From a virus (taxonomy: Duplodnaviria > Heunggongvirae > Uroviricota > Caudoviricetes): a stretch of 64,000 nt of DNA. Where the stretch lies: IMG/VR virus record IMGVR_UViG_2737471993_000002, one strand, 5' to 3'. Numbering within the stretch: the stretch's first letter is position 1; every line of letters starts with the position of its first letter. The notes beneath the pieces were generated by a model, which saw only the letters and a program-made list of their open reading frames with translations, did not search any database and had not been told where the DNA came from. The translations under genes and the position numbers were made by a program. This document shows, piece after piece, positions 11,972-21,100 of this stretch.

Positions 11972-12761
11972 TAAAGCAATCCCTGAGCTTGGCTCTGACG
12001 TTATGCAGCAAATCTATCTCTGCGCCATAAATCGCTACCCTAATGAAGCGTGTGGCTTTCTGGTTAGAACTAATGGCGACAAATATCGCTTTATGGAAGC
12101 GCGGAATGTTTCGGAGAACCCGCAGAACACTTTTGTAATGCACGTTGACGACATTATGGCGGCAGAGGATGCGGGTGATGTTATCGCAATCTGGCATTCA
12201 CATACTGATGAATCAGCAGAAGCATCTGATGCCGATCGTGCAGGCTGCGAAGCGACGGAAGTTCCGTGGATGATTCTGGCTATTCGCAAGAATGTTGAGG
12301 GAGATGCCCCTTTCCATTTTAGCGAGATGAATGTGATCACACCTGATGGTTTCGAAATGCCATACCTGGGCAGACCGTATGTATTTGGCGTATTCGATTG
12401 CTGGATGTTGTGTCGGGACTATTTGAAGCGTGAGTTTAACGTCGAACTAAACCCGAACGCACACCTGCATATTCCATCGTGGTACACCGGCGATAACGAC
12501 ATTCTCGATCAGAACTACCGTAACGAGGGATTGGTGCGTCTTGCGCCCGGAACAGAGCCTCAACGTGGGGACATCTTCTTTATCCAATACGGGAAAATGC
12601 CCGACCACTGCGCGGTTTATATCGGCGATGGAATGATTCTTCATCACCAGATCGACCGCCTTAGTTGTCGTGCTTATTACGGCGGAATGTATCAGAAACA
12701 TACGACGCATCACTTGCGTCACAGAGACTTGCTCAAGGGAGATGAGACGTGTCTGAGTTAG
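11937..12761 (+). CDS. tail assembly protein (lambda gpK-like) with MPN/JAB and NlpC/P60-type peptidase motifs
   Basis: HSHTDESAEASDAD resembles a JAMM motif; a downstream Cys/His segment (DCWMLCRDY...H) resembles NlpC/P60; position between L-like and I-like genes. Confidence 0.65.
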   Translation: MADLLELRGMGNKAIPELGSDVMQQIYLCAINRYPNEACGFLVRTNGDKYRFMEARNVSENPQNTFVMHVDDIMAAEDAGDVIAIWHSHTDESAEASDADRAGCEATEVPWMILAIRKNVEGDAPFHFSEMNVITPDGFEMPYLGRPYVFGVFDCWMLCRDYLKREFNVELNPNAHLHIPSWYTGDNDILDQNYRNEGLVRLAPGTEPQRGDIFFIQYGKMPDHCAVYIGDGMILHHQIDRLSCRAYYGGMYQKHTTHHLRHRDLLKGDETCLS

Positions 12762-13342
12762 TTCATGTGCAGCTTGGCGGCCCTATGGCCAAACATTTTG
12801 GCCGCCACTGGCATCTAAAGGTGCGCAATACAAAACAGGCTCTGGATTTAATTGAGGCCAACAAGCCTGGGTTTAAAGCATGGATGAAGCGCAATATCAA
12901 AACCTATGACCGTTACCACATCCAGATCACCAATAAACAGGGCCACAAGTGGTCTGTTGACGAAAGTGAATATCAGATGATGGGGCAGTCTGACAACATT
13001 GCCAAAATCCGCATTACACCTGTTCCGCGAGGAAGCGGTGGATCTGCTTTTGGGTGGTTTCAGACGGTAGTAGGGGCCGCTTTGTTGGTTGTATCGGCGG
13101 TAGTGATGCCTGCTTTAGCACCTCTCGGTTTGTCACTGATGATGGGCGGCATATCACAAATCATATCGCCGCAAGCCACTAACGAAAGTGTGAGACAGGC
13201 AGATAACTCGAACTCTTATTATTTCGACGGCCCTCAAAATACAGAAAACCAGGGCAACCCAGTACAACTTATCTATGGCGAGGAAATTCTGGTTGGCTCA
13301 CAGGTTGTGAGTTCTTCAATCACGATTGACCAGCTAATGTAA
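12749..13342 (+). CDS. tail assembly protein (lambda gpI-like)
   Basis: 197-aa ORF with a hydrophobic segment, directly upstream of the J-like gene. Confidence 0.55.
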   Translation: MSELVHVQLGGPMAKHFGRHWHLKVRNTKQALDLIEANKPGFKAWMKRNIKTYDRYHIQITNKQGHKWSVDESEYQMMGQSDNIAKIRITPVPRGSGGSAFGWFQTVVGAALLVVSAVVMPALAPLGLSLMMGGISQIISPQATNESVRQADNSNSYYFDGPQNTENQGNPVQLIYGEEILVGSQVVSSSITIDQLM

Positions 13343-13353
13343 ACAAGGATTTT

Positions 13354-16300
13354 TTGAACATGGAACAGTTCAAGAAGAAAAAGCTACCGCTGTTTATTGC
13401 CGGTGCGGGTGGTAAAAAAAGCAGCAAAAGCTCCAGCCGTACACCGGTTGAAGCCGACGATACCGTAAATTCTCGTGCAATGGCCGCTATCCTCGATCTT
13501 CTTGGGGAAGGGGTAATTGGCGGCTTAGTAAATGGCGCAAGATCTATTTTTATCGACGATCTGCCGATTGTAAATGAAGACGGTTCCTCCAACTTCAGCG
13601 GAATCACATGGGATTTTCGCGACGGTTCGCAAGACCAAACTCCAATGTCTGGCTTTGATTTCGTTGAAACGCCTAAATCCGTCAATATCCAGTTAAAAAA
13701 AACACATTATGTAACGGTTTCAATCGATAACGATGAAGCTGATCGGGTTCGTGTCATCATGAAGTTTCCTTCTTTGCGAAGCATAGATAAAAAAACTGGT
13801 GACACGAACGGTACAACCGTTGAGTACAAGTTCCAGATAGCAAATGGCGACTCAACATTTGTAGATGTGGTCGCGGAAGGTGAAAAAAGCGTTGGCATTA
13901 AGCTAACAGCAAAGAAGACCGGCGTTTATTACCGTAGCTACGAGCTGAAGCTGCCTAAGCCTGGACGCGCATACAAGGTTCGTGTAGTCCGTATTACCGA
14001 TGATAACAGTAGCCAGTATCTCTATAACGATACATGGGTGGATTCAATCGGGGAAATTGTCGATACACCGATGAACTATCCAAACTCTGTTTTGGTTGGA
14101 TTGAAGGTAAACTCTGAGCAATTCGGCAGCACCATGCCATCTCGCTCTTATCTGGTGCGTGGCCTAAAAATTCGAGTACCTTCAAACTATAACGAGTCCA
14201 GTAACACTTACGCTGGGGTATGGGATGGCACTTTTAAGCTGTTGTCTTCTTCGAACCCCGCGTGGATTCTCTTTGATTTGCTGACCAATGCTCGATATGG
14301 CCTTGGTCAGTATGTGTCGGAATCTATGATTGACCTTGGCCAGTTGTACCAGATTGGTCGATATTGTGACGAAGAGGTCGATGATGGCTTTGGTGGCAAA
14401 GAGAAACGCTTTGCAATCAATACGCAGATCACCAGTCGACAGGACGCATACCGACTAATTCAGGATATTGCTGGAGCATTCCGCGGCATGGTGTTTTGGG
14501 CTGGTGGGATGGTTAACATCATGCAGGATAGCCCATCAGATCCGGTAATGATGTTTACCAACTCTAACGTCAAAGATGGATTGTTTACCTATAAAGGTTC
14601 TGCGCGTAAAGATCGCCCATCCGTTGCGCTCGTAACCTACAACAACAAGGAGGACGGTTATAAGCAAAACATCGAGTACGTTGAAGATCAGGACGCAATG
14701 CGCCGTTATGGTGAGCGTAAGACAGAAGTCGTAGCATTTGGCTGTACAAGCCGAGGGCAGGCTCACCGAGTTGGTTTATGGCTTTTATATACCGCCAGAA
14801 TGGAGTCGGATGTAATTACATTTACTGCCGGCTTAGACGCGTCATTTCTGATGCCTGGTGAAACCGTTCTGATTCAGAACAAATATCGCGCAGGCAAACG
14901 TAACTCAGGTCGAATTGTGGCGTTTACCAAAAACAGCGTCACACTCGATGCGCCTGTGTCGTTAGCCAAAGGCGGCTGCTTTATTCGAATACTGAATCAG
15001 GAAGGCAAAATCGTTGAACGCGATGTTCTTGAAACTGGCGAAAATATAACAAAAGTTACGTTTTCAAAAGCCCTGTCTTCGGCTGAAACGCCTGTTTTGA
15101 ACGGCGTCTGGACTATTACAGAACCAGACCTCGAACCTATGCGCGTTCGCATCGTTAACATCGCGCAGGGGGAAACGCCGGGTAGCTTTGACATCACCGC
15201 TGTTGAGAACAATCCGTCTAAATATGAGGCGATCGACAATGGTGCAACGCTTATCCCGCAAAATACGACGGTATTGGACCCGACTTACTCCAAGCCGTCT
15301 AATTTGCAAATCACCGAAGGGACTTATCTCTCAAGCCCTGGCAACCTGTCAGTAAAACTGACTGCAACATGGGAAGGGAAATCTCCAGAGTATTGGATCA
15401 GTTGGCGACGTTCTGATGAAAACAATGTATCGAACTGGCAATCGGCGCGTGTAACCGAAGAGCAATACGAAATCGTTAATGTTGCGGAGAATGGACGCTA
15501 CGACTTCCAGCTGTATGCGGTTTCATTCAACGGTAAAAAAACAGAGATTATCAGTACCGTTTATCAGGTGCTGGGCACAATGACACCGCCAGATGCCCCA
15601 ACGTCATTAACGGCCGTTGGAGACTATCGTAATGTGATACTGAATTGGGTTAATCCAGATTCGGTAGACCTTGATCACATTAATGTTTACGCGTCCCAGA
15701 CCAATAATCTGGATACGGCGAAACTGATCGCAGAGTCTGCAAGCACCACCTTTACACATGCTGGTCTTGGGGATAGCGAAACGTGGTATTACTGGGTTCG
15801 AGCATCGAACAAGCGAGGTATGTTAAGTCCTCCGAACTCAAACTTGGGTACAGAGGCGACAACTCGCGATGTACTGTCGTTCCTGACTGGCAAAATTACA
15901 TCTTCCGAGCTTGGTCAGGCTCTGCTTGAGGACATCAACAGCAAAGCCTCTCAAGAAGCCGTTGACGAGTTAAATGAGCATATCAACCAGAGCGTCGAAT
16001 CTTTGGAGGGGGCGGTAAACGACGTTAAGGAAGATATAGCTGAATTAGATAAGCAGTTCAGCGATAACCTCGCGGATTTTGAAATAAAATTCAACGAGCG
16101 TAGCGATGCTTTGGAGAACGCACAAACCGAGCTTAAAGGTGAGGTTTCGGCAACGATCGACAAGGTCAATGAAGCGTTTGAAAAAATTGATGCTACTGAT
16201 GCTGCAATTGTTGAAATCGAAAATACCGTATCTGAACACGATAAAGCTCTCGCTAATACAGTCGAGGCAATAAAGGCTGCAAGAGATGAAGCGGCGGCTC

Positions 16301-18087
16301 TTATTGCTAAGGAAAGCGAGGCTCGTGTTGAAGGCGATGCTGCAAACGCTAAACAACTGGAAGTGTTGCAGTCAACGGTAGAGGAAAGCTCCGCTGCCGT
16401 TGAAGAAATGAAAAAGACGGTTGCAGAGGTCGATCGTGCAAGTGCAGAACTGACTACGAACATTGAGGCGTTAGCCAAAACAAATATTGACCTGGCTCTT
16501 CGTCAAGATGAAGACCAGCACAAGCAGATGGTCAATAACGCGAAGATCGCAACAACACAGAAAACCTTTGCTGATGATATGTCTGCAATGGCTACGAAGG
16601 TTGAAGAAATTCGCGTAGAAATTGGCGAAGACATTAAGGCCAGTATTCTGGAAGAGTCCACCGCGCGTGCCGATGGCGATGAAGCGTTAGCAAAGCGTGT
16701 CACTCAGCTGCAATCTAAGTTTGAAGGAGATATCAGCGCGGCGATTAGTACAGAACAGGAGGCTCGTACATCTGCCGATGAAGCTTTGACGAAACAAATA
16801 ACTCAGCTTGAGTCGAAAGTAAGCAACGATATTGTCGCAGCCATTAAGGAAGAGCAAGAAGCCCGAGCAACGGAAGATTCGGCTCTGGCAAGCCAGATCA
16901 CCCAACTTCAGGCAAAAGTTGATGATGATATTTCTGCTGCAATACGCAGTGAGCAGGAGGCTCGTGCGAGCGGAGACTCTGCGTTAGCTAAACAAATAAA
17001 CCAGCTTCAAGCAAAGGTTGACGGTGATATATCCGCCGCCATCACTCAGGAGCAGGAGGCCAGAGCAAGTGCTGACGAGGCGCTCTCACGAGAAATTAAC
17101 AGCCTGCGGGCGCAGACCGGAACTGACATTGCCGCAGCCGTTGCTGTAGAGACAAAGGCAAGGACTGATGCCGATAGTGCATTGTCTACCCAGATTACGT
17201 CTCTTACAGCAAAAGCTAATGATCTCGAGGCGTCTCTTGCCAGAGAAACAACGGCTCGTGCTGATGGTGATACCGCTTTAACAAAAGAGGTTTCAAGTTT
17301 AAAAGCACAGACAGCGAAAGATATTAGTGCGGCCGTTGCAGTTGAAACGCAGGCTCGAACTGATGCTGACTCGGCGTTGTCGTCTCAGATCACCAAGCTG
17401 ACCTCTCAATACAAAGAGGATATTAAAGCGGCTGTAGCAACCGAAACGAAAACGCGTACAGAGCAAGATGCTGCATTGGCGACTCAAATCACAAACTTAG
17501 AGTCTCAAACGGCAGCCAACATTTCCGCGGCGGTAACAACTGAAACGACAGCGAGAACGCAGGCAGATAATGCTCTGAGTGGGCGAATCGATACTCTGAA
17601 AGCAGAGGTGGATGGAAATACCGCGACAATTCAACAGCAGGCAACAGCTATTGCTGATACCAACAAAAAAGTGTCAACCGCGTGGACGTTGAAAATGGAA
17701 ACTTCAACGAGCGGAGGGCAGAAGTATGTTGCTGGTATTGCGCTTGGTATCGACACCACTGGCCTTTCTCAGTTTTTGGTGCAGGCTGACAGGTTTGGTT
17801 TGGTCAACTCTGTTAACGGGAAGATCACCACGCCATTTGTTATCGAAAACAGTATCGCCTATATGAATGGTGCGTATATCAAGGATGGCACAATCACCAA
17901 TGCAAAAGTAGGCGATCTGCAATCTACCAATTTTGTTAGCGGTAGATCTGGATGGCGGTTCGGCAAAAATGGAACGCTTGAGATCAACGGTAATAGCGGG
18001 GGTAATGGGCGACTGGTCATAAATGGTCAGCGGATTGACGTTTATGACGATAACAACGTCCTACGAGTAAGAATTGGCCTTCTGTAA
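13354..18087 (+). CDS. central tail fibre / host specificity protein (lambda gpJ-like)
   Basis: 1577-aa protein after the K/I-like genes; a fibronectin-III-like region and about ten ~32-aa coiled-coil repeats in the C-terminal third. Confidence 0.8.
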   Translation: MNMEQFKKKKLPLFIAGAGGKKSSKSSSRTPVEADDTVNSRAMAAILDLLGEGVIGGLVNGARSIFIDDLPIVNEDGSSNFSGITWDFRDGSQDQTPMSGFDFVETPKSVNIQLKKTHYVTVSIDNDEADRVRVIMKFPSLRSIDKKTGDTNGTTVEYKFQIANGDSTFVDVVAEGEKSVGIKLTAKKTGVYYRSYELKLPKPGRAYKVRVVRITDDNSSQYLYNDTWVDSIGEIVDTPMNYPNSVLVGLKVNSEQFGSTMPSRSYLVRGLKIRVPSNYNESSNTYAGVWDGTFKLLSSSNPAWILFDLLTNARYGLGQYVSESMIDLGQLYQIGRYCDEEVDDGFGGKEKRFAINTQITSRQDAYRLIQDIAGAFRGMVFWAGGMVNIMQDSPSDPVMMFTNSNVKDGLFTYKGSARKDRPSVALVTYNNKEDGYKQNIEYVEDQDAMRRYGERKTEVVAFGCTSRGQAHRVGLWLLYTARMESDVITFTAGLDASFLMPGETVLIQNKYRAGKRNSGRIVAFTKNSVTLDAPVSLAKGGCFIRILNQEGKIVERDVLETGENITKVTFSKALSSAETPVLNGVWTITEPDLEPMRVRIVNIAQGETPGSFDITAVENNPSKYEAIDNGATLIPQNTTVLDPTYSKPSNLQITEGTYLSSPGNLSVKLTATWEGKSPEYWISWRRSDENNVSNWQSARVTEEQYEIVNVAENGRYDFQLYAVSFNGKKTEIISTVYQVLGTMTPPDAPTSLTAVGDYRNVILNWVNPDSVDLDHINVYASQTNNLDTAKLIAESASTTFTHAGLGDSETWYYWVRASNKRGMLSPPNSNLGTEATTRDVLSFLTGKITSSELGQALLEDINSKASQEAVDELNEHINQSVESLEGAVNDVKEDIAELDKQFSDNLADFEIKFNERSDALENAQTELKGEVSATIDKVNEAFEKIDATDAAIVEIENTVSEHDKALANTVEAIKAARDEAAALIAKESEARVEGDAANAKQLEVLQSTVEESSAAVEEMKKTVAEVDRASAELTTNIEALAKTNIDLALRQDEDQHKQMVNNAKIATTQKTFADDMSAMATKVEEIRVEIGEDIKASILEESTARADGDEALAKRVTQLQSKFEGDISAAISTEQEARTSADEALTKQITQLESKVSNDIVAAIKEEQEARATEDSALASQITQLQAKVDDDISAAIRSEQEARASGDSALAKQINQLQAKVDGDISAAITQEQEARASADEALSREINSLRAQTGTDIAAAVAVETKARTDADSALSTQITSLTAKANDLEASLARETTARADGDTALTKEVSSLKAQTAKDISAAVAVETQARTDADSALSSQITKLTSQYKEDIKAAVATETKTRTEQDAALATQITNLESQTAANISAAVTTETTARTQADNALSGRIDTLKAEVDGNTATIQQQATAIADTNKKVSTAWTLKMETSTSGGQKYVAGIALGIDTTGLSQFLVQADRFGLVNSVNGKITTPFVIENSIAYMNGAYIKDGTITNAKVGDLQSTNFVSGRSGWRFGKNGTLEINGNSGGNGRLVINGQRIDVYDDNNVLRVRIGLL

Positions 18088-18179: not shown

Positions 18180-21100
18180 ATGTGGTACAGGGAAGGTACT
18201 ATCACATTTACACAGGGCAGCAATACTCTGGTTGGGGCAGGGACAGCCTGGAACGTAACAGCTAATGGTGTGTTGCCGGGGATGATCGTCATTGGCCCCG
18301 ACAATAAGCTGTATGAGATCAAGCGCGTAACCAGTGATACGAACATTGTTCTCTCAGAACCTTATACCGGCGAAACTCAGTCTGAAGTTCCGTGCCGAAT
18401 CATTACGACCTATGAAGGCGACTTAACACAGTTTAGCGCGCGCTTTACAGCACTAATGTCGCGTATGTCGGCTGATTCCAAGTCCATGCGCAGTTGGTTG
18501 ACTGCTCTGGATGAGGTGACAATCGAGCGTGAAGACGGTACAGAAGTGACCGTTAAGCCGCTAATGCAGATCGTCAACGAGCACAACGAAAACGTTGAGT
18601 GGTATAAAAATAACACTGACGCGATTGATGCTGCTGGCGACAAAGCTCGTGAGGCGGCGGCCAGTGCTGCCGCAGCAGCAGAAAGCGCCAATACCGCTGG
18701 AGAAAAAGCCTCTCAAGCGTCTCAAAGTGCATCCGCTGCAGAGTCCTCAAAAAGCGCGGCGGCCACCAGTGCCGGTGCCGCGAAAACGTCTGAAACGAAT
18801 GCTGCAGCGTCACAAAAATCTGCAGCCACTTCTGCATCCACCGCGACCACGAAGGCGTCAGAAGCTGCCACCTCAGCCCGGGATGCGGCGGCCTCAAAAG
18901 AGGCAGCGAAATCATCAGAAACGAGCGCAGCCTCGAGCGCCAGTAATGCCGCTTCCTCGGCAACGGCGGCAGGAAATTCCGCGAAGGCGGCAAAAACGTC
19001 CGAGACGAACGCCAGGTCTTCTGAAACGGCAGCGGGACAGAGCGCCTCGGCTGCGGCAGGCTCAAAAACAGCGGCTGCGTCGTCTGCCAGTGCCGCGTCA
19101 ACAAGTGCCGGGCAGGCCTCAGCCAGTGCCACCGCCGCCGGAAAATCGGCAGAAAGTGCCGCATCGTCTGCTTCAACAGCCACAACGAAGGCTGGCGAAG
19201 CCACTGAACAGGCCAGCGCAGCAGCGAGGTCTGCTTCCGCAGCGAAGACATCCGAAACGAACGCGAAAGCGTCGGAAACCCGTGCAGAATCCTCAAAAAC
19301 GGCAGCCGCATCGTCCGCCAGTTCGGCAGCGTCATCGGCATCATCTGCGTCTGCTTCAAAAGATGAGGCGACCAGACAGGCGTCAGCAGCGAAGGGCAGC
19401 GCCACGACGGCATCCACGAAAGCAACAGAGGCGGCAGGCAGTGCGACGGCAGCATCTCAGAGCAAAACTGCTGCTGAATCCGCTGCGACCCGTGCGGAAG
19501 CTGCTGCTGATCGTGCTGAAGAGATTGCCGGTGCAGTTGCGATGGAAGACGCAAGCCTTACAACTAAAGGTGTTGTGAAACTTAGCAGTGCTGTCGACAG
19601 CACCAGTGAATCGCTGGCCGCAACGCCAAAAGCAGTTAAAGTAGTCAATGACAATGCGAACAGCAGGGTGCCATCTAACCGAAAAATTAACGGGAAAGCA
19701 CTGACTGCGGATATCACATTAACGCCGAAAGATATTGGTACTTTAAATTCAATAACGATGTCTTTCTCTGGCGGGGCCGGGTGGTTCAAACTGGCTACTG
19801 TTACAATGCCACAAGCGAGTTCCATCGTTTACATCGCATTGATTGGTGGCGCTGGTTACAACGTCGGCTCCCCACATCAGGCAGGCATTTCAGAACTGGT
19901 TCTACGAGCAGGCAATGGAAACCCCAAAGGGATTACAGGTGCTTTGTGGAAGCGTACAGCTGTCGGATTAACGAATTTCGCCTGGATCAACACATCCGGC
20001 GATACATATGATATTTACGTTGAGATTGGCAATTATGCGACTCGTGTAAATATCCATTGGGATTGTACTGCAAATGCGACAGTTTCTATTTATACATCGC
20101 CAACATATTCAGCGAGTAAGCCTTCCAGCGTTACCGATGGTGTTGTTTATACGATGTATAGCACACATCAGAAACCGACGCCGTTAGATATTGGAGCACT
20201 GCCAACAACCGGAGGAACAGTTTCAGGTCAGTTGTCTGTTACTGGTGGGATCACCGGAACATTAAATGGTAATGCAAGTACAGCAACGAAATTGCAGACG
20301 GCAAGATCTATCGGTGGAGTTGGTTTCGACGGTTCTGCAAATATCAACCTTCCAGGTGTAAATACTACGGGTAATCAGAACACCACTGGTAATGCTGCAA
20401 CTGCTACAAAACTTCAGACGGCAAGAACTATCGGCGGCGTGAGCTTTGATGGTACTGCGAATATTAATTTGCCAGGTGTTAATACGGCTGGTAATCAGAA
20501 TACAACGGGCAACGCGGCTACTGCTACGAAGTTGCAGACTGCGCGTACTATCAATGGGGTGTCGTTTGACGGCTCGGCAAATATTTCCTTGTCGCCAGCA
20601 AATATAGGTTGCCCGGCATCTCCTACTGGTTGGTTAACTACAGGAAGTAATGGCGGAGCAATAACAACAGCACAGTTAGTGACGTTATTGCAAAATAATG
20701 GAGCATTTAACACAAAGTCATGGATTGCTCGATGTGCGTGGGCCTATGCCAATAGTGCAACCATACCAAATAGTGAAACTGGTTGTGGCGTTATTCCATT
20801 GGCAGGAGCTGTTATAGAGGTATTTAATAACGGTAGTAGCTCAAACAATTATACGATCCGTATAACAACGGCCACAACGACGAGTGTCTCTGGTGCTCTC
20901 ACTAATGCGGAGTTTATCTATGTATTTAATGGCACATATTATTCTCCGGGATGGCGAAGAGTATATAACACGAAAAACAAACCAACAGCCTCTGATGTCG
21001 GTGCATTACCTCTTACCGGTGGTACATTATCTGGAGGTTTGACATCTTCTGGCGAGATCATTTCAAAATATGCAAATGGTTTCCGCATTGCTTACGGTAG

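Follow-up and report, generated by a model that had tools for sequence, protein, structure and literature searches.

What is a long and regular repeat doing in the shaft of a phage central tail fibre? The question is raised by the J-like gene of IMG/VR record IMGVR_UViG_2737471993_000002, a virus of the Caudoviricetes, of which one stretch of 64,000 nucleotides (nt) was analysed and is called the window here. By sequence, the window can be assigned to the SSU5-like phage-plasmids, because its DNA is 98.6% identical to that of Escherichia phage Cyrano; Salmonella phage SSU5 and hundreds of non-mobilizable plasmids of ~110 kb from E. coli, Klebsiella, Enterobacter, Salmonella and Yersinia pestis are also related to it. 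The J protein belongs to the lambda gpJ-like family of tip attachment or central fibre proteins, as the original prediction, made from the DNA letters alone, had proposed. It has the hub and fibronectin type III (FNIII) domains, the C-terminal tip domain and the gene order of that family, PHROGs labels it 'central tail fiber J', and it matches lambda gpJ (Protein Data Bank (PDB) chain 8iyk_J) with E = 2e-124 in phmmer. Ten tandem units lie in this protein after the FNIII domains and before the PF09327 beta-prism tip. The explanation that we favour, with a probability of roughly 0.55 for the full statement, is that they form a metastable trimeric hendecad coiled-coil shaft whose units could each take on a second fold, a single beta-hairpin.

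Autocorrelation of the protein between amino acids (aa) 1081 and 1440 (all aa numbers are counted from TTG 13354) gave an identity of 0.46 at a lag of 33 residues, 0.36 at 66 and 0.29 at 99, compared with just 0.11 and 0.06 at the off-period lags of 32 and 34. The period is thus 33 aa and not the ~32 aa first proposed. Inside the array the lag-33 identity reaches 0.50, whereas the maximum over 5000 shuffles was 0.18 (lags 10–59), and a profile hidden Markov model (HMM) of the unit scores the array units at E = 1e-15 to 1e-19. A period produced by chance or by the composition of an Ala/Glu/Thr-rich helical region has that biased composition in its favour and nothing more; it is ruled out by the autocorrelation, the shuffles and the unit HMM, the units recur in hundreds of relatives, and we give this origin a negligible probability. 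The same analyses show that the roughly ten tandem repeats of the original prediction are real. Its coordinates, 16660–17640, do capture the array, with boundaries that are off by ~27 nt each (16633–17619), while the consensus pattern that it quoted blends unit 4 with unit 5 and is no verbatim string. The consensus obtained here is I-s-A-A-I-x-x-E-x-x-A-R-A-x-A-D-x-A-L-a-x-Q-I-x-x-L-x-A-x-V/T-x-x-D. Nine units have 33 aa each and unit 6 (17128–17223) has 32 aa. Unit 7 (LEASLARETT...), which directly follows it, is the most divergent of the array, and the unit 6/7 pair (17128–17322, aa 1259–1323) is conserved in phage PhiR41_1. By analogy with the kink in the pyocin shaft, units 6 and 7 could be a hinge or a docking site for side fibres.

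The repeat is kept at the protein level, since Tandem Repeats Finder detected no 99-nt DNA repeat in the array, DNA identity between units is low (41–64%, mean 52%; 47–64% for adjacent units) and the same codon is used at just 34% of the residues that are identical between units. Protein identity from unit to unit is 33–76% (mean 48%). The repeats are old duplications, maintained by selection on the protein. A slippage-prone DNA tandem repeat, or contingency locus, was considered and rejected on the Tandem Repeats Finder result, the divergence of adjacent units and the constancy of ten units in 163 of 165 relatives.

A possible function for this organization comes from the F-type pyocins. He et al. 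2026 (PMC12874032) reported that the 163-residue shaft of the F7 pyocin converts, during attack on the cell, from a long coiled coil to a short beta-prism in which each subunit contributes one antiparallel sheet. Every strand carries the motif SxSxxMxxLxS, where S is a small residue, exposed in the coil and hidden inside the prism, L is buried in either fold and M is buried in the coil only, Asp or Glu at M being paired with an Arg at ±4. Replacement of small corner residues by Gln abolishes killing and leaves assembly unaffected. The same authors took as homologues proteins that match the last ~400 residues of an F-pyocin central fibre in BLAST with an E value below 1e-6; of 24 siphophage homologues, 21 were predicted to take both folds, and the T1-like phages TLS and Shfl1 are within the predicted fold-switch set.

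We examined this motif, which the original prediction had missed, in 68 full units from 12 J proteins. A reverse copy at unit positions 3–13 and a forward copy at positions 18–28 fit at five of five positions in all 68 units. All other offsets fit in at most 50% of the units, and when the columns of the unit were permuted, none of 20000 trials gave a forward and a reverse fit that did not overlap. The 329 residues of the array contain 26 motif matches, against 16 in the other 1248 residues of J. E8 and R12 are invariant and D16 is present in 67 of the 68 units, in agreement with the rule published for Arg at ±4. Small residues occupy six positions (3, 11, 13, 18, 20 and 28), all of them outside the hendecad core, whose hydrophobic positions 1, 4/5, 8, 12, 15, 19, 23, 26 and 30 follow a 4-3-4-3-4-4-3-4-4 spacing, that is, three hendecads.

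Fourier analysis of hydrophobicity in the array gave peaks at 2.06 and 3.65 residues, the former (beta) periodicity being the strongest harmonic. The helical period is near 3.67 and not 3.5, in keeping with 33 = 3 × 11; a heptad coiled coil was discarded for the array on the almost complete lack of power at 3.5. Because hydrophobicity peaks at both 2.06 and 3.65, the array is amphipathic as a helix and as a strand alike, and a passive coiled coil would not need strand amphipathicity. Each unit has one reverse and one forward motif, so the array would in principle be refoldable into a beta-meander. A mapping with three strands per unit (3 × 11) was also tried and rejected: the third motif copy is poor (forward at 11 in 50% of units, overlapping the reverse copy), and an odd number of strands would flip successive units. 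Covariation among 102 unique units was weak. The hairpin register i + j = 31 (pairs 7–24 and 10–21) had the top mean coupling of 20 registers, and helix-type i+3 and i+4 couplings were raised too; the covariation is no more than suggestive. Upstream of the array, the unit HMM matches aa 980–1011 (E = 2e-5), and motif copies are found as a reverse at 950 with a forward at 965, a reverse at 982 with a forward at 997, and a forward at 1078. Probably an ancestor had a longer array, or the proximal units are in decay towards a non-switching 'spine'.

Searches of PDB sequences with the whole J protein retrieved the F2-pyocin tail fibre (25vf_A), T1 gp33 (9l9p_S) and lambda gpJ (8iyk_J). The array alone matched T1 gp33 (E = 2e-11) and DEV gp56 (E = 8e-9), and this array-only search did not reach the F2 pyocin. 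In phmmer, aa 1226–1577 align with residues 927–1193 of F2-pyocin 25vf_A at E = 3e-25, unit 10 pairing with 'TAASLQSEQTARANADSALAQRIDTVQASTDTN'; with this chain as the reference, the value lies within the homologue threshold of He et al. The F2-pyocin relationship therefore rests on unit 10 and the tip, a region that also matches T1 gp33 9l9p_S (E = 1e-25). Sequence comparison thus places the array as a homologue of the alpha-helical shaft of the F-pyocin central fibre, T1 gp33 and DEV gp56.

The homologous stretch of the F pyocin (PDB 25vf) has been solved as a three-stranded coiled-coil shaft, and the three side fibres of the pyocin dock there at one kink. The F-type pyocin central fibre (PA0641 / PyoF10) shares with the window the succession of hub domains, FNIII, helical shaft and PF09327 beta-prism, as well as the strand motif, the Arg ±4 salt-bridge rule and side-fibre genes downstream. 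Unlike the window, it has a shaft of 163–178 residues that is mostly heptad with one stutter and shows no obvious tandem array, whereas the window has ten clean 33-residue-type units (329 aa) and ~230 aa of degenerate helix. Moreover, the window belongs to a DNA-injecting phage and the F pyocin is a bacteriocin; the fold switch was shown in the latter and we infer it in the former. T1 gp33 (PDB 9l9p; PMC11945409) has near-exact 33-residue repeats that belong to the same family and, after them, the same tip domain, but with ~three clear units, in a different phage family (Drexlerviridae) and with a different tip; its C-terminus (821–1172) was too flexible to be resolved experimentally (PMC11945409). 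The DEV gp56 short fibre (Pseudomonas phage; PDB 9ze4; PMC12892993) has a coiled-coil region that matches the array and the same gpJ-like C-terminal module, but it is a 429-aa podovirus protein with few units that recruits separate receptor-binding proteins. Lambda gpJ (PDB 8iyk, 8xcj; PMC11101478) is of the same protein family as the window J and has the same tip-domain fold. In lambda gpJ, residues ~839–861 turn from helix to strand upon LamB binding (PMC11101478). This change is small because the lambda shaft has ~50 residues and no repeat array; unlike the window J, lambda gpJ also has a C-terminal Ig-like receptor-binding domain.

AlphaFold2 was run on the monomer, whereas the prisms in He et al. 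came from trimer prediction. When no alignment was used, aa 1061–1442 were helical with one break at aa 1299–1305, beside the 32-residue unit (predicted local distance difference test (pLDDT) score 63). With a 114-sequence alignment, the helix extended to aa 1409 and strands appeared from aa 1414 (pLDDT 75). The segment of ~33 residues at the junction of array and tip, where the two models differ, aligns with lambda gpJ ~839–861, aa ~1420–1442 pairing with lambda residues 841–861, and corresponds to the end of the pyocin coil. A Foldseek search with the beta part of the alignment-based model, which informs on the tip only, matched the lambda open-state central fibre (E = 3e-7) and the SU10 tip fibre. 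The PF09327 domain is a beta-structure homologous to the prism of the lambda central straight fibre and the likely 'seed' for refolding; in the alignment-based model, strands lie C-terminal of the coil, from aa 1414 onward. The coiled-coil character assigned to the repeats at the outset is supported by the helical AlphaFold2 models and by the homologous F-pyocin region, a solved trimeric coiled coil.

From these data we infer a trimeric hendecad coil, the mapping of the unit onto a hairpin, the fold switch and the lengths given here. The ten units would make up most of the alpha-helical shaft of a trimeric central tail fibre, between the FNIII closure and the distal beta-prism tip. In the virion they would form a three-stranded coiled coil, each unit comprising three 11-residue sets and nine helical turns. 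At a rise of ~1.5 Å per residue, the coil would measure ~4.9 nm per unit and ~49 nm for ten, with up to ~34 nm more from the upstream helix. Engagement of the receptor by the tip would start a refolding that spreads upward from the PF09327 prism, and each unit would become one hairpin with strands 3–13 and 18–28 and loops 14–17 and 29–2'. The register would place L with L, M with M and S with S, both within units and between them. With two strands of ~0.48 nm, a unit would occupy ~1 nm, so the array could shrink from ~49 nm to ~10 nm, about five-fold. With this shortening, the tip would come to the outer membrane, the closure by the FNIII domains would give way and the tail would open, as described for F7. 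The number of units (4–10 in relatives) would set the reach of the fibre and, under the fold switch, its stroke. Because the shaft carries the motif published for the fold switch, it is more probably a loaded, shortening spring than a passive spacer.

Several points weigh against this proposal. The fold switch is supported by a single preprint (He et al.), whose authors state that lambda and T5 do not undergo an extensive switch. The array is twice as long as the segment switched experimentally, and longer still with the degenerate upstream units. The assignment of strands and loops in the unit comes from the motif alone, and the figure legend of He et al. has 5–6 aligned strands. The homology comparison was made with the F2 sequence, whereas the switch was reported for F7. 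The motif is degenerate and the array sequence alanine-rich, and monomer AlphaFold2 left the array helical with and without an alignment. Finally, units of 32 and of 35–40 aa occur in the wider family, so that the hendecad arithmetic is not universal. By contrast, our confidence is very high in the repeat, its period, its copy-number variation and its homology, and in the motif fit and the dual periodicity.

The main rival explanation is that the shaft is a static trimeric coiled-coil spacer whose fold never changes and whose copy number tunes reach through O-antigen or capsule. It accounts for the helical array in both AlphaFold2 runs, for the coiled coil of the resting pyocin shaft, for the lack of an extensive switch in lambda and T5, and for copy-number changes in whole units. 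We nevertheless find it rather unlikely, although it deserves serious weight: it leaves unexplained the small residues conserved at six solvent-exposed positions per unit, the strong 2.06-residue periodicity and the two opposed strand motifs that fit 68 of 68 units. In another reading, the array is already a beta-prism in the mature virion, similar to the lambda central straight fibre, the predicted helix then being an artefact of monomer prediction. He et al. (PMC12874032) obtained AlphaFold3 prisms for 30% of homologous phage regions, favoured by deep alignments, and the beta periodicity is the strongest harmonic of the array. Against a virion prism, the pre-ejection structures of F2 and F7 show a coiled coil for the homologous segment, our alignment-based model is helical up to aa 1409, and the placement of E8, R12 and D16 at i, i+4 and i+8 suits helical salt bridges; this reading appears improbable.

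It is slightly less probable still that the repeats serve mainly as a docking ladder for side fibres or accessory proteins, with the number of units setting how many dock, or where. The docking of three F-pyocin side fibres on the kink of the homologous shaft is consistent with such a role, as are the large side-fibre gene right after J, the divergence of unit 7 and the coincidence of the adjoining 32-aa unit with the predicted helix break. Yet pyocin docking uses one kinked site and no ladder, and no correlation of unit number with the downstream fibre gene was seen. A docking role would moreover be compatible with the fold-switching shaft that we prefer.

J was extracted from 11 related elements and its units were counted with the unit HMM. 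Ten units are present in the window, in Cyrano-type elements and in the STEC409 plasmid, and nine in phage PhiR41_1. Six are found in Y. pestis pMT, an E. hormaechei plasmid and Photorhabdus pPAU1; five in SSU5, E. cloacae P2, two E. coli plasmids and S. Anatum pSAN1; and four in C. freundii pCAV1741. The differences always amount to whole units. Both end units, the first and the last, have orthologues in the relatives, and the unit types expanded in the window are the internal 'EQEARA' and 'VETxARTDAD'. Apart from an exact in-frame 99-nt deletion at aa 1190–1222 of its J, which leaves nine units, the E. coli AH02 plasmid (NZ_CP081702) is ≥96% identical to the window. At the junction of the deletion the first 48 nt of unit 4 are joined to the remainder of unit 5, with a 3-nt GAC microhomology. 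PhiR41_1 likewise carries a hybrid of units 4 and 5, joined at a slightly different point. In the clade at ≥95% identity, a collinear match of 1189 nt, corresponding to ten units, is present in 163 of 165 plasmids, the AH02 plasmid being the notable exception. Gain and loss of units are therefore real, as was proposed at first, but rare. The idea of an 'extensible' shaft is the wrong picture, because all but two of these 165 plasmids have exactly 10 units, and slippage could not be frequent in DNA this diverged. Nor was any link found between unit number and host range, another part of the original prediction, E. coli elements carrying 5, 9 or 10 units. Among the related elements compared, unit number showed no relation to host genus, tip length class or size of the downstream fibre. 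An invariant repeat number with no coiled-coil prediction, which the original prediction had named as grounds for its rejection, was checked for and does not hold.

Across a broader set of 120 homologues, the unit is present 0–11 times, counts that are lower bounds because the sampled proteins are short (~900 aa or less) and many are partial; spacing is mostly 33, often 32 and sometimes 35–40 residues. A tblastn search located the region in 1766 phage records, with T1-like, lambdoid, N4-like and rV5-like phages among them. The tip that follows the last unit falls into two length classes, one of 155 aa (window, SSU5, PhiR41_1, p108, pPAU1) and one of 267–311 aa (pMT, OHT403, pCAV1741, pSAN1, BHD6). 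Since tip size class is independent of unit number, tip and shaft are exchanged separately. Klebsiella SSU5-like plasmids encode giant J proteins of 4033–4233 aa, whose first ~900 aa are 82% identical to the window J before the sequences diverge; a check for longer arrays in these proteins yielded no clean 33-aa array, just weak scattered unit matches. In E. coli plasmid NZ_CP029421, J is truncated within unit 7, ~2.6 kb before the next annotated tail gene, and in plasmid AP026520.1 it is interrupted by a transposase. As J is truncated or split in them, these two elements are probably defective as phages.

The features of the locus are collected in the table below. The tail module follows the lambda order TMP-M-L-K-I-J-side fibre-lysis, as annotated in Cyrano, and PHROGs labels the gene upstream of J a tail assembly protein. 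All annotated relatives start J at ATG 13360 (MEQFKK...), 6 nt 3' of TTG 13354. The N-terminal ~300 aa of the side tail fibre form an Ala/Ser-rich low-complexity stretch, and the protein further contains at least four repeats of a 'GNQNTTGNAATATKLQTAR-I-GV-FDG' module and a Gp34_trimer domain. The long antisense or out-of-frame open reading frames (ORFs) at 18574–19578 are artefacts of the composition of this gene.

Table. Features of the J locus in the window, with positions in nt and in aa of J.
Feature	Position (nt)	Position in J (aa)	Strand	Basis or remark
Tail assembly protein I homologue	12749..13342		+	PHROG; directly upstream of J
J-like tip attachment / central fibre gene	13354..18087	1577 aa in all	+	ORF from TTG 13354; Pfam, PHROG
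FNIII-A_GpJ domain		104-238	+	Pfam, 1.5e-29
Phage-tail_3 domain		360-523	+	Pfam, 7e-34
Fibronectin type III domain fn3	15592..15831	747-826	+	Pfam; N-terminal of shaft
Non-repetitive helical shaft segment	15940..16632	863-1093	+	hydrophobic period 3.56, heptad-like
Degenerate units upstream of array	16201-16395, 16540-16632	~950-981, 982-1014, 1063-1093	+	motif pairs, unit HMM
Array of ten tandem units	16633..17619	1094-1422	+	autocorrelation, row layout, unit HMM
Starts of units 1 to 10	16633, 16732, 16831, 16930, 17029, 17128, 17224, 17323, 17422, 17521			
Array/tip junction segment	17581..17679	~1410-1442	+	AlphaFold2: helix without alignment, strand with alignment
PF09327 Phage_Tail_Tip, tail tip fibre domain	17626..18030	1425-1559	+	Pfam, 1.4e-41
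Side tail fibre gene, 1342 aa	18180..22208		+	directly downstream of J

The gpJ-like coiled-coil shaft and its fold switch are known and have been predicted for diverse siphophages, to which the SSU5 family is an addition. In the literature searched, we found no description of the clean tandem organization with its 33-residue unit composed of two opposed motifs, of an array of the length seen in the window or of a whole-unit copy-number series, and the word 'repeat' is absent from He et al. The advance is useful but incremental. Where non-contractile tails obtain the energy for breaching the cell envelope has long been a question, and a first answer, the fold-switching central fibre, was proposed in 2026. 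SSU5-like phage-plasmids occur commonly in E. coli, Salmonella, Klebsiella and Y. pestis from the clinic, and among repeat-built shafts of this type theirs is the cleanest and ranks with the longest. It also provides a natural allelic series of 4, 5, 6, 9 and 10 units, together with the single-unit deletion in a near-identical element. A stronger and more tentative view, which is possible but to which we give clearly less than even odds, is that the 33-residue unit might be the quantum of a coil-to-prism spring, either three hendecads or one hairpin, with a stroke of ~4 nm and a fixed increment of stored energy; the SSU5-like series would then show whole-unit insertions and deletions tuning the power stroke of a non-contractile tail. 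The unit series of the relatives is a test set for shaft length against reach, stroke and infectivity, and for the need for the small-residue positions in entry. The 33-residue unit with two opposed motifs supplies a sequence rule by which such shafts may be annotated.

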